From a virus (Duplodnaviria; Heunggongvirae; Uroviricota; Caudoviricetes), in the IMG/VR virus record IMGVR_UViG_2513237361_000012, positions 1 through 64,000 of that record: DNA of 64,000 nt; one strand, written 5' to 3'. The position numbers and the translations under genes were made by a program. Below the pieces are notes generated by a model that was not told the origin of the DNA, made no database searches, and worked only from the letters and a program-made list of their open reading frames with translations. Numbering within the stretch: position 1 is the first letter of the stretch; every line of letters begins with the position of its first letter. Of the stretch, positions 1-58,356 are shown piece by piece.

Positions 1-318
1 TTATTGATTAAATGGCGCTTCGTGTTTAAGAACTTTATCGATAATGTCCAGTACGCCTTCATGGTTATTGGAGCCTGCACGGTATTTCGCCGCCGCTACG
101 ACTGCGTTGCCAGCATTTTCCATTGCAAAGCTAAAGCCCGCCTGACGCAGCATCTCAATATCATTACCGCCATCGCCAAAAACCACCACTTCGCTGTCGT
201 CTATGTCCCATAATTTCTGGAGTTGACGCAGGCCATTGGCTTTATGTACGCCGGGGATAATCAAATCGATACTACCGTTGCCGGTATGGACTGGCACCAT
301 AATATCTAAAGCGCGCAA
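1..318 (-). pseudogene. ybjI: HAD/Cof-type phosphatase gene, 3' portion (gene split by prophage insertion)
   Basis: Translation carries HAD motif (FGDGGNDIEM); matching 5' portion lies at 36250-36771; frame runs straight into prophage end. Confidence 0.8.
302..306. repeat. 5-bp target-site duplication (ATATC), copy 1
   Basis: ATATC at 302-306 and 36254-36258; codons GAT-AT (Asp-Ile) appear at the end of the 5' fragment and the start of the 3' fragment of the split HAD gene. Confidence 0.6.
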
Positions 319-323
319 AATTA

Positions 324-389
324 TTCAAGATAGATATGGAATTCTTTCAAGATAAGCCAGAAGCGCACATATGGAAGTTATTCAAGATA
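324..389 (+). repeat. Terminal repeat array, 3 x TTCAAGATA (mom-proximal end), candidate transposase binding sites
   Basis: TTCAAGATA at 324-332, 346-354, 381-389; same 9-mer in inverted orientation three times at the other prophage end. Confidence 0.55.
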
Positions 390-432
390 AAACAGCGGCA
401 TTGGCCGCTGCTTTTTTATTCATTAAGTGGGC

Positions 433-1170
433 TCACTTCGGGTATGGCTGAACCCTGAATAGCTTGGTGTTTAGGCGCTTTTTTGCGCGCTTATTCAGGA
501 ATCTGATGTAGCGATACTGATTAAATTTGTGTACCACGGCCCGCTCCTTATTAGCCCGCAAATACACACCTCGTTGCCCTCCGCGCTTAATCGCGTTCAT
601 CGCTATCTCGTGATACCACTCGCCGTCCAGTTCGTAGAACGTGCTTTCGTGGCTGCCTATAAAATCAAAATTCGACGCCTGATATACCACGCCAGCACGT
701 CCGCAGCGTTCATCTGCAAAGGACTGAACCCACTCCACTGACGGGTACAGTAACCTGATGGTTTTCAGCGCGTAGCTGATGGCCCGTGATTCAGAATTGC
801 GGGGCATGTCGTCGTGTAGCCACATGCGGTTCAGTTCCATATAGCCCCGGTTATCCGTTTCCAGCACAACACGACGCCCTGAGCTGGGGTTAAGGGCATA
901 TCCCCACTGAAGAACGCCAACCAGATCACGTCCGCTGAATACGCCCAGATGCAGGTAGGAGTTATTCACAAAACGGCGGGAATAGTGTTTTGTCTGAATG
1001 ATTGTGCGGGCCAGCCAGCAGGATATGGTTTCAACGCGCAGCTCCTTTGAACCATAGCCGACAATCCGGCCTTCATACTCAATAACGCAGGGTTTTGTCA
1101 GAATGCGTGATTTCTTCTCTTTTCCCACAATACAGCTCCGTGGGATGCTCTTTGGCATTCGATATGACAA
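433..1170 (-). CDS. mom: Mom DNA-modification protein (start codon uncertain)
   Basis: Translation matches the phage Mu Mom protein from memory; sits at distal prophage end directly downstream of and overlapping com. Confidence 0.8.
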
Positions 1171-1264
1171 TGTAACGTTTACAGCGAGGACATTTTATTT
1201 CTATATGCTTAAAACCTCCTTTAAACAGTAATTTATTGCAGTTTTTACAGCGAACAGAGTCCAT
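1079..1264 (-). CDS. com: Com zinc-finger translational activator of mom
   Basis: [16 protein letters not shown]...CPRCKR: Cys4 zinc finger matching Mu Com; overlaps mom start; ORF-track start at 1291 is probably too long. Confidence 0.8.
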
Positions 1265-1336
1265 GATTCCCCCTGTGTAATAACCAGACATGAGCGCCCG
1301 GAGGGCTGGGGGTATTTAATCACAACCGATGCAAAC

Positions 1337-1366
1337 CGACGATCGATATGATGTTATCGATCGTCA
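1337..1366. promoter_or_regulatory. GATC-containing palindrome upstream of com-mom (candidate Dam-sensitive control region)
   Basis: Inverted repeat CGACGATCGATA / TATCGATCGTCA with GATC at 1341-1344 and 1359-1362, about 75-100 bp upstream of com. Confidence 0.45.
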
Positions 1367-1387
1367 TAAACTATACAAACTGATTAT

Positions 1388-1963
1388 TTAACCACCGGGC
1401 GTTAACGCTCTTACCTCGTCCAGCGTGGACAGCCGGGAAAGCTGCTCCTTCATTTCACGCTGGCGCTGATAAATCTCGTTATTGCGATCGACCTGTGCCT
1501 GAACCATTGCTGTAAGCAGTTCATCCAGTTTCTGCATCGACAGTTTCACCTGCTGGTTTTCCGCATCGCCCCATACCATGGTTTTTCGCGCTGTGTCAGA
1601 CTTTGATGCCATAACTGCCGGATAAAGACGAGCCATTGAGTCGGGGCCAGCGTTCCAGGTATGACCGTTCCATTCGAACGTGAACGGCAGTGCTTCCTGT
1701 TCTGTTCGCCACGCCTCGATTTCCCGCTTTTTGGCATCCTTCGCCGCGGCGATAAGTTCGGGTGTAATAGTGAACGGGGCGATTTCACCCCATTTGCCGC
1801 TCTGTAACTCTTCCCAGATGCGCTGGCCTGTCATTGCGGTATCATCCTGCATGGCGGTATACGGGACGAATTCCGTTTCACCTTCAAATAACACCTCGCA
1901 GTCAACCGCACCATTTTCAAGATAATGCGCGCTTCTGATGCCTTTTACCGCTCTGATTTTCAT
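1388..1963 (-). CDS. Tail fiber assembly protein (Tfa/U-like)
   Basis: Position immediately downstream of a tail-fiber gene; size and sequence character typical of Tfa chaperones. Confidence 0.65.
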   Translation of the reverse strand: MKIRAVKGIRSAHYLENGAVDCEVLFEGETEFVPYTAMQDDTAMTGQRIWEELQSGKWGEIAPFTITPELIAAAKDAKKREIEAWRTEQEALPFTFEWNGHTWNAGPDSMARLYPAVMASKSDTARKTMVWGDAENQQVKLSMQKLDELLTAMVQAQVDRNNEIYQRQREMKEQLSRLSTLDEVRALTPGG

Positions 1964-1977
1964 GTTTTATTTCCTCA

Positions 1978-4900
1978 TTACTCAATGCGCATGAACAGAC
2001 ACACATATCCGGTATCTCCACTTGATGTGGTCGACCTGCTCCCTGACAGAGCCTGATAGCGCCCTGGAAATGCTCCATGACGTGGGTCCGCTGCGCAGAA
2101 TTGCGGCGTTGAGACATAATTAGAAGCCTCACTCGCTTTGCAGGTGACAACCAGTGCTCCAAGCCGTGAGCCGGGAACAATATCGCCAAGCCCTATTTTT
2201 TTCTCTTTGTCATCTGCACTGCTCCCCCTGTAAACAGCAAGAATCGGCACACCCACTGCAGGATATTTGTAATATGAGTGCGTGCCGTTGCCCGCCGTCC
2301 TGGACAGCAGGAACGCCAGCGAATCGCCGTCGTAAATAATGGGGCTTACTGTTGCATTCCAGTTGTTTCCACTCCAGCGGTAAGTCAGGCGATGAATACT
2401 GTGCTCACCTTCGTAATACTGGTTAAAACACAGCAGTGTTTTGAATTTACGCGTTGTGTCCGATTCATCGTTATCAAAGGGCGACCACATCACATCAATG
2501 ATGCCGTTAAATTTCGTGGTGCCCGCCAGCAGCGTGGAAGAGTCCGCAATACTGACCGCATAACGCCCCGGCGTGGCCTCTTTCAGCCATTCAGCAAAAT
2601 CGGCCTGTCCGGTAAATGTCAGGGCATCGGTGCTGGTAAATGCCTGACCGAATCCATACATGCCGGACAGCGCCAGCCTGCCTGGTGTGCGGTCGCGGAT
2701 ATCGCTCTGGGGCTCCATCGTAGCAGCCGCTTTCAGCTCAAGCTCCGTGCGCATGGCTTCAGGCGTGTCCAGTGCCAGTAATGCGCGGGCTTTTTCTGAC
2801 AGTTGCGCCAGTAAAATCCGGCCCTCTTCACTGAAATAAGGCAGCGTGTTTTCTTCCGGTATTATCTGGCTGACAGCCGTTAACACGTCATTAAGCGGCT
2901 GTTTACCCGCCAGCGCCTTAGTGACCGTCGTCGCAAAATTAGGGTCGTTGCCCAGCGCCGCTGCCAGTTCGTTCAGCGTATCCAGGGCTTCCGGGGACGA
3001 GTCAACCAGTGCGGCAAGCAGTTTGCGGACAAACTCCGCATTGGCTATTTCATTACCTGCTGCGTCATCTGGCGGGGTTGGTGTTGTCGGTGCTCCGGTC
3101 AGTGCCGGGCTTTTCAGGGGCGCGCGTGCTTCAATCTGTGCAATGAGTGAAGCCTCATCAACCTTCAGGTTTTCCCAGCCAACCAGATAACCACCACCTG
3201 ATGCCACCGCGCAACGGTTATAATAAATATGACCATTAACACCGTAATAAATAATTATCTTATAGGCATACTCATCATTCGGGCTGGTTTTAGGTTGTGG
3301 CCAGATAATTTCAATAACACCGTTTGTCTGTATGCCAGGTACCACCACATTTGTGTCCGCAAATACGGTATAACGACCGGGCTTTGCTGTTTTTACCCAC
3401 CTGAGAAAATCAGTCCCTGATTTAAATTCAATTCTGTCGCTACTGGAAAATATTTTCCCGAAACCGAACATGCCAGGAATCGCCAGTCGGCCTTCGGTGC
3501 GGTCATAAATATTCTCCTGTGCATCCTTTTGTGCTGCATTGCCAAGTTGTGGCGTCAGATTCGTCCAGGTGACCGGGGCGGAGATATTATCGCCACGAAC
3601 GGTCATGAGTATCCGTCCGTCTTTTCCAAAAAACAGAACCAGCTTTGTTGCTGTCTGGCTGGTTTTATCGCCCCAGCCATTATCCAGCCAGATAATTTCT
3701 GTTATTCCGGTGGTTTCTTCCGTTCGCGTGGAAAAGGTGTAATACCGCCCCGGGTGCAGGTTGTGCGCAGTTCTGGCTACAGTCGCCATATCGCTGGCAA
3801 TAATTGAACGCGCTCCGGCGTCCGTCATTCCGTAACCATACGCACCGGGAAGCGCAACACGGCCTTCCGTGCTGTCGTAAAGGTCTGTCTGAATATCCCT
3901 TACCGCTGCGCTTTTCAGCTCAAGCTCATTGCGCATGGCTTCCACTGTGGCCTGTGCCAGCAGTGACCGGGCTTTTTCTGACAGCGGAGACAGTGAAGCA
4001 TTCCCGTCCTGATTAAAGCACAGAAGGTTATCTGCCCGCTCTTCCAGATTGCTGATAGCTGTCAGCACGTCGTTCAGCGGTTGTTTGCCTGCCAGCGCGT
4101 TCATGATTGTTGTCGCAAACTCCGGGTCATTGCCCAGCGCCGCTGCCAGCTCGTTCAGTGTGTCCAGGGCTTCCGGTGACGAGTCAACCAGTGCAGCAAG
4201 CAGTTTGCGGACAAAAGCCGCATTCGCTGTTTCCAGACCGGCAGCATCATCCGGTGGTGTTGGTGTGGTTGGCGTGCCGGTGAACGCCGGGCTGTCCAGT
4301 GGCGCTTTTGTTTTCGTCTCGTCCATGACGGTTTTGACAGCCTTTGGTGTGGCGGCCAGTTCTTCGCTGTCGTTGTCCGTATCACTACAGAGTTGCACCA
4401 GACCTTTTTCTGTCGTGGAAGCATTGCTTCCCTTCAGGTCATCAACTATCCGTTGTGCCTCGTCCCTGTGCTGTTTCGCGCTCTGCTCGCTTTTTGCTGC
4501 CGCTTCGGCGCTGGCTTTTGCCTCGCCGGTCAGCGTTGCTGCTTCACCGAGTTTATCGACCGCTTTCTGGACTATCTTATCGGCATCTTTGACCGCCTGT
4601 TCTGCCCGGGCGGCATTCTGGTTTGTTTCAGAGGCCAGCTCTTCAGCTTTCTGGACATTACTCGCAATTTCTTCTGCATCCTGCCGTATTTCCCCTGCGA
4701 GGGTTTCTGTATCCTGGCGGGCCTGTTCAGCAGCGTCCGCATGCTCTCTGGCTTTTTCTGCGCTTTGCTGCGCCTGTTGCGCCAGTTCCTCGAATTTCTT
4801 CAGGGCTTCCGGGCGCAGGTCAATATCGGTTGCCCCCAGAAAATCATTCAGCGAACCGTCTGTCGAATCTTCATAAACGCGAATGACACCGATTTCTGAA

Positions 4901-5099
4901 AGGCGCTGTGTGCTTTGTGTCAGGCGAACGCTGTACACACCCGGCAGAACGGGGAAGTCGTACTCCCCGCTCTGTGTGGTGACGTGGCTGAAAACACCTT
5001 TCAGAATCCCTGCGCGGTTGTGCAGGGAGGTCAGTGTAATGGTTGCGCCGCCCAGCGGTTCTCCCGTGGGCGTTTTAATCACACCTTTAAGCTGCGGCA
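1978..5099 (-). CDS. Side tail fiber protein, lambda Stf-like N-terminus, with internally duplicated conserved segment and several tip-like modules
   Basis: N-terminus resembles E. coli prophage Stf proteins; Ala/Glu-rich coiled-coil region; two copies of the ...PTTPTPPDDAAG...LDTLNELAAALGNDP... block; start set at MPQLKG just after upstream tfa stop. Confidence 0.75.
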
Positions 5100-5527
5100 T
5101 CGGGACGCTCCGGCCAGTTGATGGAATTAAAGGAGGCTTCATCGGTAACGGTGCTTAAATCCAGCGCCTTCAGTGATTTGATATGCGCCATCCACCGCGC
5201 CAGACGGGCTTTATCGTCATCGCTGATGATTCCCAGTTCCAGCTCAGTTTTCCAGTCGGAGGTGATTTCCCTTGCTTCAGCCAGCAGGTGCTGGCGTTGC
5301 GTTTCCGCTTTCTGCTGCCAGTTAATTACGGGTTCTTTTAATACCGGATATCCGTTTTCGCCAGATACAATAATAAAACCGTCAGTCTGGCCCTGTAACA
5401 GTCTCTGATATTCTTCATCCGTGATTTCCTGTAAATCATTCGGCCACGTTCCCGCATTTTCATAATCACCCTGAAGGCCAGAATGATAAAAACCGTTTGT
5501 TGATGGGCTGAAATAAATAGTCATCAT
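5087..5527 (-). CDS. Tail fiber assembly protein (Tfa/U-like)
   Basis: 146 aa, directly downstream of tail-fiber gene 5527-6414. Confidence 0.65.
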   Translation of the reverse strand: MMTIYFSPSTNGFYHSGLQGDYENAGTWPNDLQEITDEEYQRLLQGQTDGFIIVSGENGYPVLKEPVINWQQKAETQRQHLLAEAREITSDWKTELELGIISDDDKARLARWMAHIKSLKALDLSTVTDEASFNSINWPERPDAAA

Positions 5528-6414
5528 TAATACCCTATCGCTGTCCAGTACATAACGCCGTTATTCTCGCTGTTGAATGTCGCACCTGCTGCTGATAACG
5601 ATTTCAGGGAAATAGAGTAATCAGCACGGGTGTATGCGTTGGTAATAGTGATGCTGGTACATGCTGACGGAAATGATATCGGAAACGTCAGCCCGGCACT
5701 GGCATTGCCGAGATACCCCCACTGAATAATCACCCCGGTGGACGTGTCCTTAAACCAGCCATTACCGGCTTTTGACGCCGTGTTTTTTTGCTGGTAACGG
5801 TTGTCACCTTCAGTTTGTGACATTCCCGCAGAAATCGTGATATCGCGGCTGCCATCAAACAGCACATTGTTAATCCTGCGGGCCGTCTGAAGGCGGGTTG
5901 CCGTTCCGGCGTTGCCGCTGATGTTGTTGATGGTGATATCCGACATCAGAGCCATGCCGTTGACCTTGCGGGTATTCGGTACGGCATTACTGGCTTTATT
6001 TACCGTGTCACGTAATGAAAGCGCATTGATAATTTCATCGGCTGTGGTTTTCCCGAGAATACCGCGCACAAACGCACTGAGCGGCGTTAATGCCATTGTG
6101 TCTTCGCCCGTAAAATACGGGAACGTATTATTCTGACCGGTTAATCCGGCAATAGCTCCGGCTGAACCACTGTTCGTAATAAACAGTTTTTTCAGCGCCG
6201 TCATAATCTGGTCGGTGGTGTTTTTATCCGGTTTGATATTTGCCTGCCGGAGAATTTCCAGCAGTTCAGACTGAATAATATTAAACCAGTCCGGCCCCGG
6301 ATAGGTGGGCGGAATACCGTTCCCGCCTTCGGTGAAATAAAGCGTTGTTTTGCTTAATTCAGCCGCGACAGGTGGCATTACCGGTACACCCGTCGGGTTA
6401 TCCACATGAAACAT
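5527..6414 (-). CDS. Tail fiber protein (Mu S-like position)
   Basis: Follows baseplate genes and precedes tfa; Gly/Ser/Thr/Asn-rich C-terminus typical of fiber tips. Confidence 0.55.
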   Translation of the reverse strand: MFHVDNPTGVPVMPPVAAELSKTTLYFTEGGNGIPPTYPGPDWFNIIQSELLEILRQANIKPDKNTTDQIMTALKKLFITNSGSAGAIAGLTGQNNTFPYFTGEDTMALTPLSAFVRGILGKTTADEIINALSLRDTVNKASNAVPNTRKVNGMALMSDITINNISGNAGTATRLQTARRINNVLFDGSRDITISAGMSQTEGDNRYQQKNTASKAGNGWFKDTSTGVIIQWGYLGNASAGLTFPISFPSACTSITITNAYTRADYSISLKSLSAAGATFNSENNGVMYWTAIGY

Positions 6415-6417
6415 AAA

Positions 6418-7002
6418 TTATTCTCCGGTGTAATAATATTCATATTCCGTGCCCGCCAGCCGGTAATGCTTCAGCAGGCATTCCAGCTCGCGGGTCCGTT
6501 CGCTGATTAATGGCGTCATGACGTCATCAATACAGGTAAACCGCCCGGCATCTTTATCCGGGACTTCAACTTTCAGCAGCCAGCGATACCGTGCCGGATG
6601 CAGCGGGTACATGCAGTCACGCAGGCAGTGGTGCGGCAGAACGGCCGTCACCTTAATGGTGAAGCCCAGCGCCGCCGCAGCGGCTTCAATCTGCCAGGTT
6701 GCCAGCCCGCCTTTGCGGCGGTATTTCTCCACCACGGCCCGGCGGCGGGCTTCCGTTGTGGTGGCGGCAATTCCGCATTCCGGCAGCGCCAGATATTGCT
6801 CCCACTCCGGCAACAGCTGGAGCGTGGTTTCCGGTCGCATCTCCACATGCAGACGCGAGGCGTCGTATTCAACGCGGGTCAGACGCTCTGCAAGCGCTCT
6901 TAAAAAACGGTTTAAATCCGCGTCGTTATCACGCGGCCATGCCTTACCCCGTGGCATGACCTGTTGCAGTGCGGTCAGCCATTCCGTCACGCTGTGAGCC
7001 AT
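6418..7002 (-). CDS. Baseplate protein (P2 gpI-like)
   Basis: Position in baseplate cluster between J-like gene and tail fiber; size about 194 aa. Confidence 0.55.
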   Translation of the reverse strand: MAHSVTEWLTALQQVMPRGKAWPRDNDADLNRFLRALAERLTRVEYDASRLHVEMRPETTLQLLPEWEQYLALPECGIAATTTEARRRAVVEKYRRKGGLATWQIEAAAAALGFTIKVTAVLPHHCLRDCMYPLHPARYRWLLKVEVPDKDAGRFTCIDDVMTPLISERTRELECLLKHYRLAGTEYEYYYTGE

Positions 7003-8063
7003 GTCACCTCCCCGATGGTGATAAGCTCATCCACATCACTGGTGGTGTCTTCCCCGATGTTGAGAAAGTAATCCGTAATGCCGGACGTCATACCGATGGC
7101 CGTGCGCAGCGAGGACACCGGCAGCATCTGACCGGGGGCCAGCGTTTTCTGTAATGCGGTCAGGTTTGCCCGGACGGCGTTCCTGTTCGCCTGGCTGTCC
7201 GGTGTCAGACGGATGGACAGGTCGAGCTTCTTCAGCCTGACCTGCACCGGCCAGACCTCGATGCCGCCCGGTTTACCCACCATCACGCCGGTGGCCGGGT
7301 GTTTGTGGCAGAACAGATACTGCTCCATTGTCTTCAGGTCGTCCCGTGTGGGGATAATGTCTTCACGGTCATCATAAAGCCATGCCAGCCCGACCGTGCC
7401 GGGGCCGTGCCACGCATCCCATGCCCACGCGCGGCTGACGCCCGGCACTTCACGCGCCCAGATGACGTAATCATGTAGTGCACCGCCCACCGGGGGATTG
7501 CGGCGCACATACAGCAGACGGTCCAGCAGCTCTGCGATGGATTCAATATCTGCGCCACCGGTGATGCCACTTTCAGTCACCGCGCCGGTGCTGCCCGTTC
7601 CGGGTAGCGGGGACAACAGAGTGAGCACGGCACCGGCAGCAAGATTGCCCGCCACACCGGCTTCTTCAGCCTGCACGATGACGGTGACCTCGCCGTCCTG
7701 TACCTCGCCGGATGTGAGTACCTGATACACCTGATTCGTGTCGGACTGCATCCGGGTTTCTGCCGGAATGGGGGACTGACTGGTGAAGGTCACCGGCCCG
7801 CTGGCAAAGGTGGCCTGCTTGCGGATAACCCCTTCATACGTTGCTGTTTTGATAATGGTTTCATCATCAGACGTAGTGGACGGAATTATCTGGTCCTTAA
7901 TCCAGCTCTGGTGGTCGTATAAATCCCGGACCTGACTGCTGAATGACACGTTCAGCGCCTGCTCAACACTGACAGGCGGCAGCTTTTGCAGACCGAGTTC
8001 ATACGCAATATCTTTTTCGCCGTCGGCAATCAGTTTGCCCAGCGTGGGGATTTCATACGGCAT
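6987..8063 (-). CDS. Baseplate J-like protein
   Basis: 358 aa, synteny gp25-like then J-like then I-like as in Mu/P2 baseplates. Confidence 0.65.
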   Translation of the reverse strand: MPYEIPTLGKLIADGEKDIAYELGLQKLPPVSVEQALNVSFSSQVRDLYDHQSWIKDQIIPSTTSDDETIIKTATYEGVIRKQATFASGPVTFTSQSPIPAETRMQSDTNQVYQVLTSGEVQDGEVTVIVQAEEAGVAGNLAAGAVLTLLSPLPGTGSTGAVTESGITGGADIESIAELLDRLLYVRRNPPVGGALHDYVIWAREVPGVSRAWAWDAWHGPGTVGLAWLYDDREDIIPTRDDLKTMEQYLFCHKHPATGVMVGKPGGIEVWPVQVRLKKLDLSIRLTPDSQANRNAVRANLTALQKTLAPGQMLPVSSLRTAIGMTSGITDYFLNIGEDTTSDVDELITIGEVTWLTA

Positions 8064-8505
8064 TAATGGTGGCCTCCCATCGGCGGGTGATTTCGATTGT
8101 GAGCGTGGTTTTGTCCGGGCGGGTTAACACCACCTGAAAGGCAATACGGTCAGGGACGATGATTCTGGCCGTGACGGTGGCGTTACGGGCGTAACCGGCC
8201 CGCAGCAGCGGTTGCATGGACAGCCGCGCGTAATCTTCCACGCGCAGGCGGACATCTTCCGTCAGCTTTTCACGCTCAAGCAGCCACAGGCGGGAACCCC
8301 ACGAAAAATCGCTGTACGTGTCGCCCGGCCAGCCGCGCGGGTCGCCAGAGCCGTCAGGAATGACATCATCGTCATCAGCACGGGCATCGGTGAAAAGGCA
8401 GATAAGAACCTGAGTGACCAGCCCCTCATCCAGTGAGAGGCCGTTATGGGTGACGGTGATGTCACCCCGTGAGAGCATGTTATTCCAGCGGATTCCTGTC
8501 GTCAT
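8053..8505 (-). CDS. Baseplate wedge protein (gp25/W-like)
   Basis: 150 aa, position between spike and J-like gene. Confidence 0.6.
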   Translation of the reverse strand: MTTGIRWNNMLSRGDITVTHNGLSLDEGLVTQVLICLFTDARADDDDVIPDGSGDPRGWPGDTYSDFSWGSRLWLLEREKLTEDVRLRVEDYARLSMQPLLRAGYARNATVTARIIVPDRIAFQVVLTRPDKTTLTIEITRRWEATINAV

Positions 8506-9038
8506 ACGGGCGGTGATGTATTCTCATTGTCGCCGTCCTTATGAATGTGTTCGATGAATGATTTACCGTTGATTCTGACATCTTCAGTAAATTCACAGGG
8601 ACCGACGAATTTCATTTGTTTACCGATAATATTCAGCAATTCGTCGGCGGTGAGATTTACCGTTTTCCCTGAAACGTTTAATTGTTCTCCTGTGATTTCA
8701 ATGACGCCGTTTTCCTTCAGGGTGATGTGTGATTTGCCGTCCCGGTGATAAAGCCGGACATCGCCGGGGGACAGTCCTTTCGGGCGACATCGCTTGTCCT
8801 CCACCGCGATGGCAACCAGCCCGTCACGCCGTCCGCCAACGGCCAGCACAATGGCTTCAGAACCTTCCGGCGGAACGGAAGTAAACCCGTAGTTCTGGAA
8901 GCGTTCCACGTCGTCGTCAGTAGCATCTGCCAGCGTCTGGATTTGCAGATTCTGCCGCTCCAGACTGTCAGACACCATGCGGACAACGGCACGATCAACC
9001 AGCAGCCGCAGACGGCGGGCAATGGCGTTTAATCCCAT
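8502..9038 (-). CDS. Baseplate assembly/spike protein (gpV-like)
   Basis: 178 aa, position in baseplate cluster. Confidence 0.5.
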   Translation of the reverse strand: MGLNAIARRLRLLVDRAVVRMVSDSLERQNLQIQTLADATDDDVERFQNYGFTSVPPEGSEAIVLAVGGRRDGLVAIAVEDKRCRPKGLSPGDVRLYHRDGKSHITLKENGVIEITGEQLNVSGKTVNLTADELLNIIGKQMKFVGPCEFTEDVRINGKSFIEHIHKDGDNENTSPPV

Positions 9039-43615: not shown

Positions 43616-43842
43616 TGGCTGATGCAATGGATCTCGTACAGCAGCGCGTTGAAGAAGAACGCCAGCGCCATATCCGTGCTGCCCGTGCCAAAACACCGGG
43701 CGTGTCTCGCGTGCTTTGCATTGAGTGTGAAGCGCCAATTCCGCCAGCACGCCGCCGTGCCATTCCGGGTGTGCAGCTTTGCATTACCTGCCAGGAAATT
43801 GCAGAGCTGAAAGGCAAACATTACAACGGAGGTGCTGTATGA
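43615..43842 (+). CDS. TraR/DksA-family zinc-finger protein
   Basis: CIECEAPIP...CITCQ four-Cys motif; overlaps dam start by ATGA. Confidence 0.6.
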   Translation: MADAMDLVQQRVEEERQRHIRAARAKTPGVSRVLCIECEAPIPPARRRAIPGVQLCITCQEIAELKGKHYNGGAV

Positions 43843-44696
43843 GCACCATTCTGAAATGGGCGGGTAATAAAACCGCCATTATGTCCGAACTGAAAAAATA
43901 CCTTCCTGCTGGCCCGCGACTGGTTGAACCTTTCGCGGGTTCTTGTGCTGTGATGATAGAGACGGATTACCCCAGCTATCTTGTTGCGGATATTAATCCT
44001 GATTTAATCAACCTCTATAAAAAGGTTGCTGCTGATTGCGAGGCGTTTATATCTCGTGCCAGAGCTTTATTTGAGGAAGCAAACAGTGAGCTGGCTTATT
44101 ACAACATAAGGCAGGAGTTTAATTACTCAACTGAAATTACTGATTTCATGAAAGCGGTATATTTCCTGTATCTCAATCGTCACGGTTACCGTGGGTTATG
44201 TCGCTATAACAAGAGCGGGTATTTCAACATTCCCTACGGTAATTATAAAAATCCGTATTTCCCTGAAAAAGAAATTCGCGCATTTGCAGAGAAAGCCCAG
44301 CGATCAACGTTTATCTGCGCCAGCTTTGATGAAACGCTGGCGATGCTGCAGGTGGGGGATGTGGTGTATTGCGATCCGCCTTATGACGGTACGTTTTCCG
44401 GTTATCACACTGACGGCTTCACTGAAGATGACCAGTATCACCTGGCATCCGTTCTTGAACATCGGTCATCAGAAGGACATCCCGTCATTGTTTCTAACAG
44501 TGACACATCCCTGATCCGTTCGCTGTATCGCAATTTTACTCACCACTACATCAAGGCAAAACGCAGCATCAGTGTGGCAGCTGGTGATAGTAAATCTGCA
44601 ACAGAAATCATTGCTGTTTCCGGGGCGCGCTGCTGGGTGGGATTTGATCCTTCGCGTGGCGTAGATAGTTCTGCTGTGTACGAGGTGCGTGTATGA
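43839..44696 (+). CDS. dam: DNA adenine methyltransferase (Dam-like, N6-A MTase)
   Basis: N-terminal KWAGNK...PFAGS (SAM binding) and DPPY catalytic motif. Confidence 0.85.
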
Positions 44697-47107
44697 GTCA
44701 TGACGATATGAGCAACTCTAGCGGCTTTAACGAGGCCGCTGCATCATTTTCATGGAACGGCCCGAAAAAGGCCATTAACCCTTATCTGGACCCGGCGGAA
44801 GTTGCGCCGGAGTCTGCACTTTCAAACCTGATCACTCTGTATGTTGCCGATAACGAGCAGGAACAACTGCGCCGCGAGGCACTGAGTGAGCAGGTCTGGG
44901 AGCGTTATTTCTTTAATGAATCCCGTGATCCTGTCCAGCGCGAAATGGAGCAGGATAAGCTCATTAGCCGGGCAAAGCTGGCGCATGAGCAGCAGCGTTT
45001 TAATCCAGACATGGTCATTCTGGCTGACGTCAACGCCCAGCCTTCCCATATCAGCAAGCCGCTGATGCAACGTATTGAATACTTCAGCAGCTTGGGCAGG
45101 CCAAAGGCTTATTCCCGCTATTTGCGTGAGACGATTAAGCCATGTCTGGAACGACTGGAGCATGTACGCGACAGTCAGCTATCCACTTCTTTTCGCTTTA
45201 TGGCAAGCCATGAAGGGCTGGACGGCCTGCTGATCCTGCCTGAAATGAGTCAGGATCAGGTGAAACGCCTGTCTACCCTTGTCGCTGCGCATATGAGCAT
45301 GTGTCTTGATGCCGCTTGTGGTGATTTGTACGCCACCGATGATGTTAAGCCAGAAGAAATCCGCAAGACATGGGAAAAGGTGGCAGCGGAAACCCTACGT
45401 TTGGATGTCATCCCGCCTGCGTTTGAGCAACTCCGTCGGAAAAGAAACCGCCGTAAACCAGTGCCCTATGAACTCATTCCGGGCTCGCTGGCGCGTATGC
45501 TGTGCGCCGACTGGTGGTATCGGAAATTGTGGAAGATGCGTTGCGAATGGCGGGAAGAGCAGTTGCGTGCTGTCTGCCTGGTCAGCAAAAAAGCATCTCC
45601 CTATGTCAGCTATGAAGCTGTGATGCATAAACGTGAGCAGCGCCGTAAGTCGCTGGAGTTTTTCCGTTCTCATGAACTGGTGAACGAAGACGGAGACGCG
45701 CTGGATATGGAAGATGTGGTAAACGCCAGCTGCAGCAACCCGGCGCATCGCCGCAATGAGATGATGGCCTGTGTTAAAGGTCTGGAGCTTATCGCGGAAA
45801 TGCGCGGTGACTGCGCCGTTTTCTACACCATTACCTGTCCGTCACGTTTCCATTCCACGCTCAATAACGGCAGACCCAACCCGACCTGGAAAAACGCGAC
45901 GGTAAGACAAAGCAGCGATTATCTGGTCGGTATGTTTGCTGCATTTCGTAAGGCGATGCACAAAGCCGGGTTGCGCTGGTATGGCGTGCGGGTGGCTGAG
46001 CCGCATCACGACGGCACAGTTCACTGGCACCTGTTGTGTTTCATGCGCAAAAAAGACCGCCGCGCCATTACTGCATTGTTGCGTAAGTTTGCTATCCGTG
46101 AAGACCGCGAGGAGCTGGGCAATAACACGGGGCCGCGCTTTAAGTCTGAGCTGATTAACCCGCGCAAAGGAACGCCGACAAGCTACATAGCGAAATACAT
46201 CAGTAAGAACATTGACGGGCGTGGTCTGGCTGGCGAGATCAGCAAGGAAACGGGTAAATCTCTTCGTGATAACGCTGAATACGTGAATGCCTGGGCGTCT
46301 TTGCATCGTGTTCAGCAATTCCGCTTCTTTGGTATTCCGGGGCGTCAGGCTTACCGTGAACTGCGATTGCTGGCTGGTCAGGCGGCAAGGCAGCAGGGTG
46401 ACAAAAAAGCAGGTGTGCCGGTACTGGATAACCCGCGCCTTGATGCCATTCTGGCTGCTGCTGATGCTGGTTGTTTTGCCACCTATATCATGAAGCAGGG
46501 AGGTGTACTGGTTCCCCGTAAATATCACCTCATCAGAACCGCTTATGAAATTAACGAAGAGCCGACCGCCTATGGCGATCACGGTATTCGTATTTATGGC
46601 ATCTGGTCACCCATTGCAGAGGGCAAGATCTGCACTCATGCAGTGAAGTGGAAAATGGTTCGTAAGGCCGTTGACGTTCAGGAGGCGGCAGCCGACCAGG
46701 GCGCTTGTGCCCCTTGGACTCGTGGCAATAACTGTCCCCTTGCTGAAAATTTGTACCAACAGGAGAAAGATAAATCAGCTGATGGGGACACCAGAACAGA
46801 CATTACCCGCATGGATGACAAGGAGTTGCACGATTACCTGCACAGTATGAGCAAAAAAGAGCTCCGGGAACTGGCAGCAAGGTTACGCCTGGTTAAGCCG
46901 AAACGGCGTAAAGACTACAAACAGCGAATTACAGATCATCAGCGACAGCAGCTCGTCTATGAACTGAAGTCCAGAGGATTTGATGGCAGCGAGAAAGAGG
47001 TCGATTTACTCCTTCGCGGTGGCAGTATTCCGTCAGGAACAGGCCTGCGTATCTTCTATCGGAACCAGCGTTTGCAGGAAGATGATAAGTGGCGGAACCT
47101 GTATTAA
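44693..47107 (+). CDS. A: Replication initiation endonuclease A (P2/186 gpA family)
   Basis: 804 aa, rolling-circle initiator-like, canonical position after early genes. Confidence 0.8.
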
Positions 47108-47870: not shown

Positions 47871-48929
47871 TTAATTTTCAATTCCCTCCATTTTACAATG
47901 AGTTTTTTCCCAGAACTGTAATACAACAGGACTAGCCCACTCTGGCATCAGTGCGTTATTTAAAAAACTGAAAACATCATGAGACGCATCAGCATTTTTT
48001 CTAAGGAATTTCCAGCCTTTTCTAGTATTTATCTCAACAATACCTAACCCACCATCATCAAACATATGCATCTTGAATTCAGGATTGTTTACACCTAGAG
48101 ATTTTATTTCTTTTATGTATGGACTATCTTCATCCATAAATATTTTCTCTATGTGCTTAGCACAATGATATATTTTATTTCGATAAGTTGATACGCTCAC
48201 AGCGGTACGCGCTGTTGTTATTCCCATTCCTAATGGGGCATATGCTTTTCCATCCATCACTACGGGCAGATTTATTCCATTTTTTCTTAAGTTTGCAATA
48301 TCTGAATCTGTAGTTGGATGAATACAAGCTAAGCCTGAAATACCTTTCATTTCAAATATTTCTGCTGCTTCTGGCCAGTTGCGTATGAATGTTTCTACCA
48401 AATCTCTTTGAGAAAAAAGATTTGGTTCTATGTTTTTATCATGATGTTTTATATCAATAAAAAGCACAGCGTTTGAGTACACCTTCAGGAATAATACCCA
48501 CTCAGCACGATCTGAGTATTTTTTACTTGAACTTACTGGATTTAATGGCAGATGGAGGTGATGAATCCCCCAATCAGCCCATAGGTTATCCGTTCTTTTC
48601 GTCGCCTTTTTACCGCTTGTGTCATTGAATAATGTTAATGTTTTACTCTGATAAGGATTTACATCACCACCAGTAGTAAACAACATCTCGATTCTCTGCA
48701 ATCCAACCCTTGCGCCATCGTGAATATTTTCAGGAAATCGATCTGATTTTAAAATTATTCGTTTTTGTGGAACAATGTAGCGTAAAAGAAAATCACACCA
48801 CCTCAGTAGAGGATCGTGAAGATTTGAGTGCCCGGATTCATCATATAATAACCCAAATGCTTGAATTCCCTTCTCTGAAATTTCGTCAATATCTTTGATT
48901 AGATTAATATTTTTTCGTGCGTCCAACAT
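47871..48929 (-). CDS. Hypothetical 352-aa protein, accessory cargo
   Basis: Long uninterrupted AT-rich ORF between tum-like gene and cos/retron; no family recognised by eye. Confidence 0.6.
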   Translation of the reverse strand: MLDARKNINLIKDIDEISEKGIQAFGLLYDESGHSNLHDPLLRWCDFLLRYIVPQKRIILKSDRFPENIHDGARVGLQRIEMLFTTGGDVNPYQSKTLTLFNDTSGKKATKRTDNLWADWGIHHLHLPLNPVSSSKKYSDRAEWVLFLKVYSNAVLFIDIKHHDKNIEPNLFSQRDLVETFIRNWPEAAEIFEMKGISGLACIHPTTDSDIANLRKNGINLPVVMDGKAYAPLGMGITTARTAVSVSTYRNKIYHCAKHIEKIFMDEDSPYIKEIKSLGVNNPEFKMHMFDDGGLGIVEINTRKGWKFLRKNADASHDVFSFLNNALMPEWASPVVLQFWEKTHCKMEGIEN

Positions 48930-49323
48930 ACTAACTCCGTTTAAATATAATTTTTTAGTATTTCAGTTAATTAATATCTATACGCCGTTATAGCTGAATT
49001 TTCCGGTGATTTCAGGGCACATTAACCAATTTAGATAATACTATAGTAATGGTTGGGCTGATTTTTCAAGAACAAAAGTAATTTTCAAGCTTTGTAACAT
49101 GTTGATTTTCCACTTTTCGCTCAAGCGAGCTTTCATCTTTGCAAGCCCATATGTTCGTTTTTCAAGCGATTATTCAGATACGTTAACTTCCCATGGCAGT
49201 GCATGACTATGCTGCATGAAATCGCATGATCGATCGAGGATCGTCTATGCTTAGACCAGCCAGAAATGGCGGGCTTTTGCTCATGTCATGCAGCTGCATG
49301 AAAACCACTGCATAAAGTGGGCA

Positions 49324-49342
49324 GGCGTGGCGGGGATACGAG
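49324..49342. other. cos-like cohesive-end site
   Basis: GGCGTGGCGGGGA matches the first 13 nt of the 186/P2 cos sequence as I recall it; position between A-side genes and Q. Confidence 0.4.
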
Positions 49343-49412
49343 GGCGCGCTATCACGTAAAATAGGCAAAATACTTCTGGAAAACAGAAAGTTGAAGTGAT
49401 ATGTTCATAAAC

Positions 49413-51342
<1,930 letters not shown>

Positions 51343-51383: not shown

Positions 51384-52412
51384 TTAAAATTTATATGGTT
51401 TGAATTGTAATATATTATCTTCAAGCCATTTATTTAATTCCTGCATCCTTTTCTGTAAGGGTATTAATTCGTTCCTCACAAACACTAAACTCGCTTTTTC
51501 CACATCCCCAAACCCCCCGACATTATTTGGCATAATCCCCATCATTTGCGGCGGCACACGATGTGCTGCCATCATGTCATCCCGACTCACGTTCTTGATA
51601 TTCAAAAACTCATCCTTCGCTGCGACCTCTGACAACGGGATAATCTGAAGTCCGTCCTTTTTGCCGTTAGGCGAGTACATAAACAGATTGCGGAAGTTGC
51701 CAGGGCCTTTGGCGCTTTTCATCGCATTGCGGAGGTTGTTCACATCCTCCTGGTTCTGCGCTGCATCGGTCATGTACATGATGAAGCCTGCATGACTGCC
51801 GTTAATGTAATACTTGCGGCGGAACAGCGTGGCGGACTCGTTGAGCAGAGCTGACGGAATGGCAGAAAGATAACCGGGCAGGCCGTAGATCTCCTGGTTG
51901 ATGTCCGGTTCCATCAGATGAAAAATGTTGCCTTTCGTGAACTGATACGGCTGCGTAGTCATGCCGTATTGCACAAACCAGTAGGTATCCAGGTCTAACC
52001 CGCGTCGGGTGTATTTTGCCAGTGCAGGCTCAAGGGCGATAACTTCACCGAAGCGGTTCGTGCGTTTCTCCAGGTAGGCGTTACCAAAAACCAGATAGTC
52101 CTGTACAAAACGCGAAAAAGCCTGCTGGCTGAGCAGCGGGTGAGGGATGTAGGTGCTGGTCAGAATGTTGCACTTCACTGCAATCGGTGAGCTGTGATGC
52201 ACGGCGGCGCGGAAGGTTCGCGCCAGTCCGTCGAAACTCACAGGCGGCTCATACCAACGATCCATCTGTACGCATTCCACATAGTCCAGCAGTTCGCGGC
52301 GGTCCAGAACAGGAACGGGATCACCGAAGCTGAATGCTTCGGCTGAAGTCTGGCTTTTATGCTGGCTCTGTTTCGTCGACGCAGCGCGGTTCTTCTTACT
52401 CTTTCCCATCAA
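51384..52412 (-). CDS. Q: Portal protein (P2 gpQ-like)
   Basis: 342 aa, position and orientation as P2 Q next to terminase P. Confidence 0.85.
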   Translation of the reverse strand: MMGKSKKNRAASTKQSQHKSQTSAEAFSFGDPVPVLDRRELLDYVECVQMDRWYEPPVSFDGLARTFRAAVHHSSPIAVKCNILTSTYIPHPLLSQQAFSRFVQDYLVFGNAYLEKRTNRFGEVIALEPALAKYTRRGLDLDTYWFVQYGMTTQPYQFTKGNIFHLMEPDINQEIYGLPGYLSAIPSALLNESATLFRRKYYINGSHAGFIMYMTDAAQNQEDVNNLRNAMKSAKGPGNFRNLFMYSPNGKKDGLQIIPLSEVAAKDEFLNIKNVSRDDMMAAHRVPPQMMGIMPNNVGGFGDVEKASLVFVRNELIPLQKRMQELNKWLEDNILQFKPYKF

Positions 52413-54175
52413 AAAATCTCCACAATATTGCTGGTATTGGCGGACTCGCCCTGCAGCGGTTCGTTAAACAGTGCGTGCATTGTTGCCCAGGCCAGATCGG
52501 CATGGCTGGCTTCTTCGCTGCGGCTGGCTTCATAGGTCGGGCGGTTGCCACTGGCAGTGGTAGCGCGACGGATTGCCATAAATGACTGCGCAATGTCGGT
52601 GTGCCCGGCGTCAAACTCCAGACGGCGGTGGCTGATAATGTCGTAGGCCTTGAGTACCAGGGCGTTTTTAACGTTGGGGTTATAGACAAACTCCCTGACG
52701 GCAGGAAAAAACGCTTTCACGTTCTCGTAAACCCCGTGACCGACGCCGGTCGAGTCGATACCGATATAGGTCACGTTATACTGTTCGGTCAGTTTTTTGA
52801 TGGCGTCAGCCTGGGCGCGGAAGTCCATCCCGCGCCACTGGTGACGCTCAAGAATGCGGAACTTACCACCCGGCACGGCTGGCGGAGCCACCACCACGCA
52901 TCCGGCACTGTCGCCGTTCTGCGTACCTTTTGCCGGGTCATAACCGATCCACACTTCGTGCCAGCCAAACGGGCGCAGGGCCAGTGCATGAAAGTCGGTC
53001 CAGACTTCCCAGCTGTCCACCATGCACGCCTGCAGTTCGCTGAGCGGGAACACGGACGCGAGATCGTCCACGAACTCGCACATCAGCAGGTTCTGGTATT
53101 CGTCCGGGCTGTACTCCATGCGCAGCTGGTCGAGGTCGAACAGGTTACAGCCGCCGCGCACCGCATCTTCCACGGTGACTATCTGGCGGTATTGCCCGTC
53201 TGCGCACAGCAGGCCGGGGGCCAGATTGTTGTGGGACAGGTCGATGTCCACCTTATCGGCTTTGTTGCGCCCACGGTTAAACAGAGCACCGGACCAGAAC
53301 GGATAAGCACTGTGTGTCAGGCTGGATGGCGTGGAAAAATAGGTTTGTCGCCATTTCTTGTGAATAGCCATCCCGGAAGCCACTTTGCGCAGCTCCTGGA
53401 ATTTCGGTATCCAGAAATATTCATCCAGATACAGGTTGCCGTGATAACTCTGGGCCGTGCGGGCATTGGTGCCGAGGAAGTAAAGAGTGGCTCCGTTAGG
53501 AAGCACCATCGGATCGCCTTTTAGCTCCACCTCGACTTCTTTGGCGAAGTCGATGATGTATTGTTTAAAGACGTGGGCCTGAGCCTTACTGGCAGAAAGG
53601 AAAATCTGGTTACGTCCGGTAAGCAGGGCGTCAATCAGGGCTTCACGGGCAAAATAGAAGGTCGCGCCGATCTGGCGAGACTTCAGCAGGTTGCGGATGC
53701 GGTTGGTTTTTCCGGCTTCCCACCAGTGGCGCTGGTAGTTGAACATGGAGGAATGGAAGATTTCTTCCAGCTTCTCAATCTGCTCATCGGTGAAAACATT
53801 CTTTTCCGGCTGACGGCGTGGGCCTTTATTGCGGTTGGCGACGTTAGGGTTTAAGTCGGCTTCGTTGCCGCCATTGTTAAACTTGCCGATCCGCGCGTGG
53901 CGCTCAGACTGGCGCGCCAGCAGGTCAATCTCTTTGAAATCTTTCCCTTCTTTGTGCTCCTTCATGATGAGCTGGCAGTAGCGTGCGGCGGTGGTGAGCT
54001 GCATCTGATCCAGCGGCCCATAGTCACCCCACTTGTCGCGTTTTTTCCAGCTGTGAACGGTTGCAACTTTCTCGCCCAGCATTTCAGCAATGCGGGCTAC
54101 GCGGTATCCCTGAAAGTACAGCAGCATGGCCTGCCGACGGGGATCGAGATCTGCGGGTGTCAGTGTGGTGTTCAT
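52409..54175 (-). CDS. P: Terminase ATPase subunit (P2 gpP-like)
   Basis: 588 aa, divergent from O-N-M-L operon as in P2. Confidence 0.85.
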   Translation of the reverse strand: MNTTLTPADLDPRRQAMLLYFQGYRVARIAEMLGEKVATVHSWKKRDKWGDYGPLDQMQLTTAARYCQLIMKEHKEGKDFKEIDLLARQSERHARIGKFNNGGNEADLNPNVANRNKGPRRQPEKNVFTDEQIEKLEEIFHSSMFNYQRHWWEAGKTNRIRNLLKSRQIGATFYFAREALIDALLTGRNQIFLSASKAQAHVFKQYIIDFAKEVEVELKGDPMVLPNGATLYFLGTNARTAQSYHGNLYLDEYFWIPKFQELRKVASGMAIHKKWRQTYFSTPSSLTHSAYPFWSGALFNRGRNKADKVDIDLSHNNLAPGLLCADGQYRQIVTVEDAVRGGCNLFDLDQLRMEYSPDEYQNLLMCEFVDDLASVFPLSELQACMVDSWEVWTDFHALALRPFGWHEVWIGYDPAKGTQNGDSAGCVVVAPPAVPGGKFRILERHQWRGMDFRAQADAIKKLTEQYNVTYIGIDSTGVGHGVYENVKAFFPAVREFVYNPNVKNALVLKAYDIISHRRLEFDAGHTDIAQSFMAIRRATTASGNRPTYEASRSEEASHADLAWATMHALFNEPLQGESANTSNIVEIF

Positions 54176-54317
54176 GGCACAAACCTACAGCCTTGAATGA
54201 AGGCTTTCCCCGCCTGCGGTTTGTGTGGTTGTCGGTACAAATACCGCGCATTGTTTCACTGCCCCCATCACCGCAACCATAAGGCTCCAGTAAGTTTTTT
54301 CTAACGGAGCACGGCTC

Positions 54318-55151
54318 ATGACAGTGAAAGCAAAGCGTTTTCGCATCGGGGTGGAAGGTGCCACCACCGACGGACGCGAAATCCAGCGTGAATGGCTGGA
54401 ACAGATGGCAGCCAGCTACAACCCGGCGGTGTATACCGCGCTGATTAACCTTGAGCACATCAAGTCTTATCTGCCGGACAGCACCTTTAACCGCTACGGC
54501 AAGGTGACGGCGCTGTTTGCTGAAGAAATCACGGAAGGTCCGCTGGCAGGCAAGATGGCGCTGTATGCCGACGTTGAGCCAACGGAGTCCCTGGTGGAAC
54601 TGGTGAAAAAAGGCCAGAAATTATTCACCTCTATGGAAGTCAGCCCGAAGTTCGCTGATACGGGCAAAGCCTACCTGGTCGGCCTGGCTGCCACTGATGA
54701 CCCTGCCAGTCTGGGCACTGAAATGCTGACATTCAGCGCCAGTGCAGCCCATAACCCGCTGGCAAACCGCAAGCAGAATCCCGCCAATCTCTTTACCGCC
54801 GCAGAGGAAACGGTGATCGAACTGGAAGAAATCCAGGATGACAAACCGTCCCTGTTTGCCCGTGTCACGGCGCTGTTTACCAAAAAAGAGCAGTCCGATG
54901 ACGCCCGGTTCTCTGATGTGCATAAGGCCGTGGAGCTGGTCGCCACTGAGCAGCAGAACCTGAGCGCACGCACCGAAAAATCCCTGTCTGAGCAGGAAGA
55001 ACGCCTGTCTGAACTGGAGACTGCTCTGCAGGAGCAGCAAACCGCCTTTAACGAACTGGTGAATAAGCTGAGTCATGAAGACAGCCGCCAGGACTACCGC
55101 CAGCGTGCAACAGGCGGTAACGCCCCCGCTGACACTCTGACCAATTGCTGA
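54318..55151 (+). CDS. O: Capsid scaffolding protein (gpO-like)
   Basis: 277 aa, first gene of rightward late operon. Confidence 0.8.
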   Translation: MTVKAKRFRIGVEGATTDGREIQREWLEQMAASYNPAVYTALINLEHIKSYLPDSTFNRYGKVTALFAEEITEGPLAGKMALYADVEPTESLVELVKKGQKLFTSMEVSPKFADTGKAYLVGLAATDDPASLGTEMLTFSASAAHNPLANRKQNPANLFTAAEETVIELEEIQDDKPSLFARVTALFTKKEQSDDARFSDVHKAVELVATEQQNLSARTEKSLSEQEERLSELETALQEQQTAFNELVNKLSHEDSRQDYRQRATGGNAPADTLTNC

Positions 55152-55167
55152 TGGAGCACAAAACCTG

Positions 55168-56226
55168 ATGAAGAAGAATACCCGCTTTGCTTTTAACGCT
55201 TACCTGCAGCAGCTGGCGCGTCTGAACGGTGTGGCAGTTGAAGAACTGTCCAGCAAGTTCACCGTGGAGCCGTCTGTACAGCAGACGCTGGAAGACCAGA
55301 TCCAGCAGTCCGCCGCTTTCCTGACGCTGATTAACGTCACGCCAGTGACTGAGCAGTCCGGTCAGTTGCTGGGGTTGGGTGTTGGTAGCACCATTGCCGG
55401 AACCACTGACACCACCGCGAAAGAGCGTGAACCTGTCGATCCTACGCTGATGGTCGATGTGGAATACAAATGCGAGCAGACCAACTTTGACACGGTACTG
55501 ACCTACGCGAAGCTGGACCTGTGGGCGAAGTTTCAGGATTTCCAGGTGCGTATCCGTGACGCCATCGTGAAACGTCAGGCACTGGACCGCATCATGATCG
55601 GCTTTAACGGCGTGAAGCGTGCGAAAACCTCCAACCGTAGCGAAAACCCGCTGCTGCAGGATGTGAACAAAGGCTGGTTACAGAAAATCCGTGAGGATGC
55701 ACCGGATCACGTCATGGGCAGCAGCACCACGGGCGGTGAAACCACACCGGGTGCGGTGAAAGTCGGTAAAGGTGGCGAATATGCCAACCTGGACGCCGTG
55801 GTGATGGATGCCGTCAATGAGCTTATCGACGTTGTCTACCAGGACGATGACGATCTGGTGGTGATTTGCGGGCGTGAACTGCTGTCTGACAAGTATTTCC
55901 CGCTGGTCAACAAAGAGCAGGAAAACAGTGAAAAACTGGCTGCCGATATGATCATCAGTCAGAAACGCATGGGTGGCCTGCAGGCGGTGCGTGCGCCGTT
56001 CTTCCCGCCGAATGCGCTGCTGATCACCCGTCTGGATAACCTGTCCATCTACTGGCAGGAAGACACCCGCCGCCGTTCAGTTATCGACAACCCGAAACGT
56101 GACCGGATTGAAAATTTTGAATCCGTTAACGAAGCCTATGTGGTTGAGGACTATCGCTGCGCTGCACTGGTGGAAAATATCCAGATTGGTGACTTCAGCG
56201 CCGCCGCAGCAGAAACCGGAGCGTAA
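55168..56226 (+). CDS. N: Major capsid protein (gpN-like)
   Basis: 352 aa following scaffold gene. Confidence 0.85.
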   Translation: MKKNTRFAFNAYLQQLARLNGVAVEELSSKFTVEPSVQQTLEDQIQQSAAFLTLINVTPVTEQSGQLLGLGVGSTIAGTTDTTAKEREPVDPTLMVDVEYKCEQTNFDTVLTYAKLDLWAKFQDFQVRIRDAIVKRQALDRIMIGFNGVKRAKTSNRSENPLLQDVNKGWLQKIREDAPDHVMGSSTTGGETTPGAVKVGKGGEYANLDAVVMDAVNELIDVVYQDDDDLVVICGRELLSDKYFPLVNKEQENSEKLAADMIISQKRMGGLQAVRAPFFPPNALLITRLDNLSIYWQEDTRRRSVIDNPKRDRIENFESVNEAYVVEDYRCAALVENIQIGDFSAAAAETGA

Positions 56227-56229
56227 TTC

Positions 56230-56880: not shown

Positions 56881-56975
56881 CAGAACGTGCCCCCGCGCAC
56901 GGGCGGCACGGGGTGGCGAAAGGCACTGCCACATCAAAACCCCGTCCACCGCCCTTTATTTCAGGAGAAAGCAGC

Positions 56976-57643: not shown

Positions 57644-57646
57644 ATT

Positions 57647-58355: not shown

Positions 58356-58356
58356 G

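Follow-up and report, generated by a model that had tools for sequence, protein, structure and literature searches.

A Mu-like prophage long tail fibre with a duplicated joint block, three homologous modules and, most probably, a single distal tip

We analysed a window of 64,000 nucleotides (nt), i.e. positions 1 to 64,000 of the IMG/VR virus record IMGVR_UViG_2513237361_000012; the sequence belongs to contig AEME01000001.1 of assembly GCA_000208565.2. The window contains a Mu-like prophage (positions ~320-36,100), and a long tail fibre gene situated at the right end of this prophage is the subject of the present report. The gene was placed at 1978-5100 on the minus strand by the list of open reading frames, the translation and the homologues; it encodes 1040 amino acids (aa) followed by a stop codon (1978-1980). 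The full open reading frame is 1978-5142 on the same strand; database homologues and an identical public gene call begin at the ATG at 5100 (MPQLKGV...). An earlier interpretation made from the letters of the window (hereafter the sequence-only reading) had the length of the fibre right, ~1040 aa, and put the end of the gene at 5099, which is one base short and off frame. All parts of the gene described below lie on the minus strand; we use R for a block present in two copies (R1 and R2), M for a module present in three copies (M1, M2 and M3) and T for the C-terminal domain.

The N-terminal anchor domain (aa 4-129, positions 4714-5091) is of the lambda Stf type. It matched PF08400 with a score exceeding the gathering score (E-value 1.7e-25), and its sequence matches in PDB were the collar spike protein 7kjk and the lambda tail fibre chain 9e7m (E-value 8e-9). 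Both the lambda Stf-type N-terminus and the general description as a side-tail-fibre type protein had been proposed in the sequence-only reading, and both agree with these matches. The anchor is followed by an Ala/Glu/Gln-rich helical shaft (aa 96-225, 4426-4815), which was recognized by composition and by a weak match to Laminin_I, and which aligns with the helical portion of 7kjk; from its sequence this shaft is probably a coiled coil. Next comes a Phage_fiber_2 repeat (PF03406, E-value 7e-16) at aa 228-267 (4300-4419). The Phage_fiber_2 region is the sole part of the long fibre resembling Mu S in sequence (5yvq, E-value 6e-5, aa 215-270). Opposite the Ala/Glu-rich shaft we observed antisense open frames of 275, 168 and 87 aa on the plus strand (4049-4876), as well as a strong AT skew (-0.34) at window positions 4001-5000; most likely, these frames and the skew arise from the codon bias of the coiled coil and do not represent genes.

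The distal part of the gene carries an internal duplication. Comparison of the gene with itself by blastn produced one off-diagonal match (398 nt, 76.6% identity, E-value 6.7e-80), and a DNA repeat search identified direct repeats at 2869-3146 and 4051-4328 (278 nt, 79% identity) with a spacing of 1182 nt. Since 1182 nt make 394 codons, the two copies are in frame. At the protein level, where the self-comparison was made on halves and on modules separately, aa 257-487 and aa 651-890 were 53% identical (E-value 8e-73); in the core of the repeat, aa 264-350 versus 658-744, 74 of the 87 residues are the same. We delimited R1 as aa 258-400 (3901-4329, with the DNA repeat core at 4051-4328) and R2 as aa 653-795 (2716-3144); the gapless DNA core of the second copy, 2869-3146, extends 2 nt beyond the latter part. 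The duplication had been noticed in the sequence-only reading, with coordinates that agree with ours, and the two nucleotide searches confirm it.

The codons of R1 and R2 are informative on the age of the duplication. Among the 74 codons for identical residues 28 differ between the copies, and in register the two are never identical over more than 20 nt. Thus, the duplication should be old and kept by selection acting on the protein; for the same reasons R1 and R2 are not being homogenised and are poorly suited to frequent deletion by RecA. Judged from sequence, the duplication is a fixed feature of the family and not a recent or dynamic rearrangement.

Each R block precedes one or two modules of another kind: M1 (aa 401-520, 3541-3900) and M2 (aa 521-652, 3145-3540, with a variable distal half at aa 561-640) follow R1, while M3 (aa 796-920, 2341-2715) follows R2. 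Each of the three opens with a motif GR-x-A-x-[PS]G-x-x-G-x-G, which reads TEGRVALPGAYGYG in M1, TEGRLAIPGMFGFG in M2 and TPGRLALSGMYGFG in M3. The sequence-only reading gave this motif as EGR-x-A-x-PG-x-x-G-x-G; it was correct about the presence of three motif-bearing modules, and the form found in M3 departs from its pattern, with P for E and S for P. It also held that a different module appears each time. We found that M1, M2 and M3 are mutually homologous (pairwise E-values 5e-16, 9e-13 and 3e-22; 29-45% identity), i.e. they are copies of one ~120-aa domain.

The AlphaFold2 model of M2 alone had a mean predicted local distance difference test score (pLDDT) of 88.3 and a predicted template modelling score of 0.75; the model of M3 together with T consisted of two domains (pLDDT 82.5). 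The models of M2 and M3 share a common order of elements: an extended N-terminal segment with the motif, a strand, a helix and four to five strands. The fold weakly resembles that of the in-line knob domains of phage fibres, with low scores, 6-13% sequence identity and monomer models on our side; a PDB sequence search returned no solved relative for M, T or the DUF4376 protein encoded downstream of the fibre. Because of the element order shared by the two models, M is best described as a knob-type bead domain, in the sense of a resemblance and not of a proven membership of the knob family.

To the distal side of M3 lies T, a C-terminal tip domain of ~120 aa (aa 921-1040, 1981-2340). The three M modules were used as profiles in an exhaustive search of 1.84 billion representative proteins; it returned 106 clusters only (at 50% identity), and R/M layouts were mapped on the 75 of these clusters that were listed. 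The layouts include R-M-T, M-M-T, M-R-M-T, R-M-R-M-T and R-M-M-R-M-T; in a small number of long proteins an M-R pair is internal and sequence of another kind comes after it. A tail of 90-150 aa extends beyond the last M in 63 clusters, and 60 of these 63 tails belong to one homologous family, T, many of them with strong matches to aa 916-1040 of the long fibre. It is this homology of the tails that identifies M plus T as the conserved end of the fibres. The long fibre has the arrangement that defines the family, a last M (here M3) followed by the conserved terminal T, which measures ~103-135 aa in R-M-T fibres; M3 is the only one of its modules with a T behind it. These sequence comparisons suggest that T is most likely the receptor-binding end. 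Simpler members of the family include a fibre of 662 aa with the layout N-shaft-R-M-T, P0132, which is 73% identical to aa 651-1040 of the long fibre, and the M-R-M-T fibres P0123 and P0129. Given the existence of R-M-T, M-M-T and M-R-M-T forms, the long form could plausibly have originated from serial joining of distal segments at R.

Full-length homologues of the long fibre are numerous. More than 120 clusters of them, 1032-1050 aa in length, 78-90% identical and with 100% query coverage, were found in E. coli, E. marmotae and Salmonella; with the annotated prophage fibres of E. coli W, ETEC1732 and phage Rac-SA53 the lengths are 1032-1061 aa. Hidden Markov models of R and M, derived from the query, were run against 120 homologues as well as the fibres of E. 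coli W, ETEC1732 and Rac-SA53 (n=123). Two R blocks and three M modules were found at matching positions, in the order R1-M1-M2-R2-M3-T, in all 123 proteins. The sequence-only reading had implied that the architecture was unusual unless homologous fibres of the same build proved to be the norm; they are the norm, and therefore the architecture is not special to this phage. The serial joining at R, if our reading of the sequences is right, plausibly predates the divergence of all 123 homologues. Complete E. coli genomes had no match above ~91% to the fibre region.

Most homologues are annotated as 'prophage tail fiber N-terminal domain-containing protein'. Many copies (P0012, P0019, P0021, P0022 and others) bear the name 'shikimate transporter', which also occurs in one RefSeq record and looks like a propagated mis-annotation. 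Pfam and NCBIfam contained no model for R, M or T, and NCBIfam had none for the long fibre, the chaperones or the short fibre of the same locus. No paper on the internal architecture of this fibre family emerged from literature searches on PF08400, Rac-SA53, DUF4376 and the modularity of Stf.

Conservation was determined as the mean identity of the query to the 120 full-length homologues. It was highest in R1 (97%) and M1 (93%), followed by M3 (88%) and R2 (87%), then M2 (77%, with 63-71% in its distal half, aa 561-640) and T (60%, with 47-54% at aa 961-1040). T is thus the most variable part of the protein, and the T allele of this fibre is no more than 67% identical to that of any of the 120 closest homologues.

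The N-terminal anchor falls into two sharp classes: it is ~98-100% identical to ours in the Mu-like contexts examined and 37-39% identical in Rac-type fibres. The long fibre has the Mu-like class, its anchor being 100% identical to that of the fibre of the ETEC1732 Mu-like prophage; the N domain tracks the phage type, which marks a mosaic breakpoint. The fibre of Rac-SA53 is 92-99% identical to ours across R1-M1-M2 and then, after R2, 38% identical in M3 and 31% in T; the chaperone of Rac-SA53 is 70% identical. Such a pattern suggests that a distal cassette was exchanged at R2.

The genes around the long fibre are those of a Mu-like phage. A transposase, a repressor and a MuB-like gene are situated at 31.9-36.0 kb, and baseplate J and homologues of Mu gp47/gp48 precede the fibre genes. 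Immediately upstream of the long fibre, both on the minus strand, we found a short fibre of 295 aa (5527-6414), the first 81 aa of which match residues 1-81 of Mu S (E-value 3e-19), and a tail fibre assembly protein (5087-5527; PF02413, E-value 2e-24), the counterpart of Mu U, whose gene overlaps with its stop the start of the long fibre gene by 14 nt. The C-terminus of the short fibre matches the C-terminal region of R-pyocin fibres and Gp53-like_C. Since the N-terminus of the short fibre matches Mu S 1-81, the short fibre and the PF02413 protein are the real counterparts of Mu S and U. The comparison with the S/S' alleles of Mu, which the sequence-only reading had suggested, shows that the S homologue is the upstream 295-aa fibre and not the long fibre.

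Downstream of the long fibre, also on the minus strand, lies a gene for a DUF4376 protein of 191 aa (1388-1963; Pfam E-value 6e-16). In the homologous loci a DUF4376 gene is always found downstream of the fibre, and in the Alteromonas phages V22 and A5 DUF4376 proteins have been listed among the tail fibre chaperones (PMC10579305). By analogy, the DUF4376 protein is the probable cognate chaperone of the long fibre. The locus thus contains two fibre cassettes, one after the other on the same strand: the short fibre with the PF02413 chaperone and the Stf-type long fibre with DUF4376; the second of them is an extra, co-oriented cassette at the position that S'/U' and gin have in Mu. Further downstream are com (1079-1291) and mom (433-1170), both on the minus strand and identified by the Pfam families Zn_ribbon_Com and Mom, which make up the right end of the Mu-like prophage. 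Inside this right end, between mom and a truncated host HAD-hydrolase gene (1-318), three copies of a direct repeat of 15-27 nt, ATATGGAAnTnnTTCAAGATAA, occupy positions 318-395 with spacings of 22 and 35 nt; they are candidate end-binding sites of the transposase.

We saw no sign of a DNA inversion system of the Mu G, P1 C or e14 P type. A tblastn search with P7 Cin over the whole 64-kb window gave a best E-value of 1.3, and the gap between com and the DUF4376 gene (1291-1388) holds no open reading frame; the absence of gin from this gap and of an invertible G segment, both asserted in the sequence-only reading, is thus upheld. Cin searches in three homologous loci also detected no invertase. 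The search for cryptic gix-like inverted repeats, suggested in the same reading, was negative: no cixR, gixL or hixL 26-mer was found at positions 1-9000 with up to 8 mismatches allowed (the cix site was taken from the P7 record), and the inverted repeats at positions 1-7000 were only pairs of 14-20 nt, at chance level. All fibre genes share one strand, with no S'/U' in the opposite orientation. The gin-less DUF4376-com-mom junction is present in 18 complete E. coli genomes, and the genes of the ETEC1732 prophage are arranged in the same order. As this junction is shared by 18 complete genomes, the lack of an invertible segment is not unusual.

We believe, with a probability of about three in four, that the product of the gene is a conventional long tail fibre, with in-line knobs and a single tip, M3-T, at its distal end, and that the gene belongs to an extra cassette in a gin-less Mu-like lineage. 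The fibre, presumed to be a homotrimer, would run from the lambda-Stf-type anchor through the helical shaft and the Phage_fiber_2 repeat to R1-M1-M2-R2-M3-T. In such a fibre R would act as a conserved joint block of ~90-140 aa, of a kind present in many fibres, and the ~120-aa M domains would be globular, knob-type units strung along the length of the protein. T would contact the receptor, and the downstream DUF4376 protein would help T to fold. The R blocks probably also provide the common homology through which distal cassettes (M3-T with the chaperone) are swapped among prophages, and the breadth of host range would come from the possession of two fibres and not from inversion of DNA.

Several considerations weigh against this interpretation. 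In variability the distal half of M2 comes close to T, and it exists in discrete allele classes, which one would not predict for a purely structural bead. The structure models are monomers, while the protein is almost certainly a trimer. The pairing of a lambda-Stf-type anchor with a Mu-type contractile tail is a further difficulty.

The variability of M2 could indicate a multi-specific fibre, in which M2 provides a second, lateral receptor-binding site and its distal half and T are exchangeable independently. At aa 561-640, the region whose mean identity is 63-71%, the homologues fall into discrete classes: 27 have at least 90% identity to our allele, 79 have 50-80% and 13 have 30-50%, and the classes do not correlate with the T alleles (r = -0.05). 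Furthermore, according to a review of R-pyocin fibres, binding may involve Knob2 in addition to the C-terminal lectin-like domain (PMC11871291). Still, identity remains high in M1 (93%) and M3 (88%), neither M1 nor M2 has a T domain of its own, and variation of this kind could stem from recombination tracts or from immune or defence pressure, with M2 playing no part in binding. We consider a second binding site in M2 unlikely. The extended version of the same idea, that two specificities on one fibre (M2 aa 561-640 and T) together with the Mu S-like short fibre have taken the place of G-segment inversion, appears to us more doubtful still.

The sequence-only reading saw in the gene several alternative receptor-binding tips fused in series, i.e. 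three tips, an arrangement that would be unusual and specific to this phage. On this view each module would be, or would once have been, a tip with a different specificity. It is true that in R-M-T fibres such as P0132 a single R-M unit stands directly before the end of the protein, and that the end of R matches the junction of constant and variable parts in P7 gpS. Yet the three modules are one homologous domain, the conserved T stands behind M3 only, M1 is nearly invariant (93%) and the layout recurs in every one of the 123 homologues. We regard three tips as very improbable. Two elements of the proposal survive, namely the serial joining at R and the variability of the distal half of M2 independently of T.

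Even less credit is due to the possibility that R1 and R2 work as a switch, in which recombination between the repeats would delete 394 codons (M1-M2) and leave a R-M3-T fibre of ~646 aa, so that fibre length or host range would vary without an invertase. The repeats are in frame, 1182 nt apart, and a natural fibre of the kind that would result exists in P0132; at 79% identity, with no exact in-register match longer than 20 nt, with abundant synonymous differences pointing to no recent gene conversion, and with both copies kept in 123 of 123 homologues, such a switch is hardly credible. As for an assembly artefact or a chance similarity, the chance of either is negligible, both being ruled out by the E-values of the repeat (6.7e-80 for nucleotides, 8e-73 for protein) and by the presence of the same structure in a sequenced phage and in numerous complete genomes that are independent of one another.

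The preferred interpretation, a conventional fibre with a single M3-T tip, makes the long fibre one more allele of a common, annotated family of prophage fibres, and its direct importance is small. The description of the family in terms of R, M and T could nevertheless improve annotation, given the lack of Pfam and NCBIfam models and the 'shikimate transporter' names. The two independently variable regions, the distal half of M2 and T, could guide the engineering of fibres. Finally, the locus represents a recurring gin-less Mu-like lineage that combines a S-like short fibre with a Stf-like long fibre.

Another prophage, P2-like, adjoins the Mu-like one in the window (38837-64000). It carries a gene for a DUF4917 protein (38837-39820), an integrase (39928-41103), a D12-class adenine methyltransferase (43779-44696), and terminase and capsid genes; window positions 52000-60000 are 100% identical to E. 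coli NCTC8623. Between its replication gene A (44693-47107) and its portal gene (51384-52412) lies low-GC cargo (47871-51342, 33-40% GC), composed of an open reading frame of 352 aa with no Pfam match (47871-48929, minus strand) and a reverse transcriptase of 609 aa (49513-51342; PF00078, E-value 2.7e-31). The cargo is probably an anti-phage defence system of the reverse transcriptase type in a known P2 hotspot.

That tail fibres contain recurring conserved motifs and exchange their parts as mosaics has been known since the early 1990s from work on P2, P1 and p15B, and the long fibre can be compared with several characterized systems. Like lambda Stf, it has the PF08400 domain, a helical shaft, a Phage_fiber_2 repeat and an R-type block. 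The tblastn matches to lambda Stf fall within aa 3-776 and show ~51% identity over the aligned parts, which make up 37-38% of the query. Unlike the case of lambda Stf, M3 and T found no match, so the homology does not reach the C-terminal receptor-binding part; the downstream partner is a DUF4376 protein and not a PF02413 Tfa (the PF02413 gene of our locus follows the short fibre instead); and the tail is of the Mu type, contractile and with a baseplate.

In P7 gpS the R block is also present twice (aa 250-329 and 326-450, 42-55% identity), and the Sc/Sv boundary at aa ~454, where cix is situated, coincides in the alignment with the end of R, the point at which M starts in the long fibre. As the P7 boundary falls at the end of R, we view R as a widespread conserved joint before exchangeable distal parts. 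However, the R copies of gpS are adjacent and not parted by two modules, and the variable part of gpS differs from the M-T type. P1 and P7 exchange distal parts by site-specific inversion; P7 has Cin and cix, whereas here the searches described above found neither an invertase in the window nor a cix-like 26-mer at positions 1-9000.

The resemblance to Mu lies in the surroundings, with the gp47/gp48 baseplate genes upstream and com and mom downstream. The long fibre differs from Mu S in lacking the N-terminal baseplate-attachment region (the match being confined to aa 215-270), and the locus differs from that of Mu in having no gin, no inverted repeats and no opposed S'/U'. With the R1/R2 pyocin fibres and the shaft domains of T4 gp34, the long fibre would share in-line globular domains placed ahead of a terminal binding domain; the likeness to these knob fibres, a type to which phage K gp144 also belongs, is limited to a small alpha/beta fold and low scores.

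The closest parallels are found in three relatives, WP_032084897.1 of the ETEC1732 Mu-like prophage, WP_000117760.1 of E. coli W and tail3 of Rac-SA53. All three have the same R1-M1-M2-R2-M3-T layout, and in their loci, as in ours, a DUF4376 gene follows the fibre while another fibre and a PF02413 chaperone precede it; the ETEC1732 prophage shares, in addition, the gin-less com/mom end.

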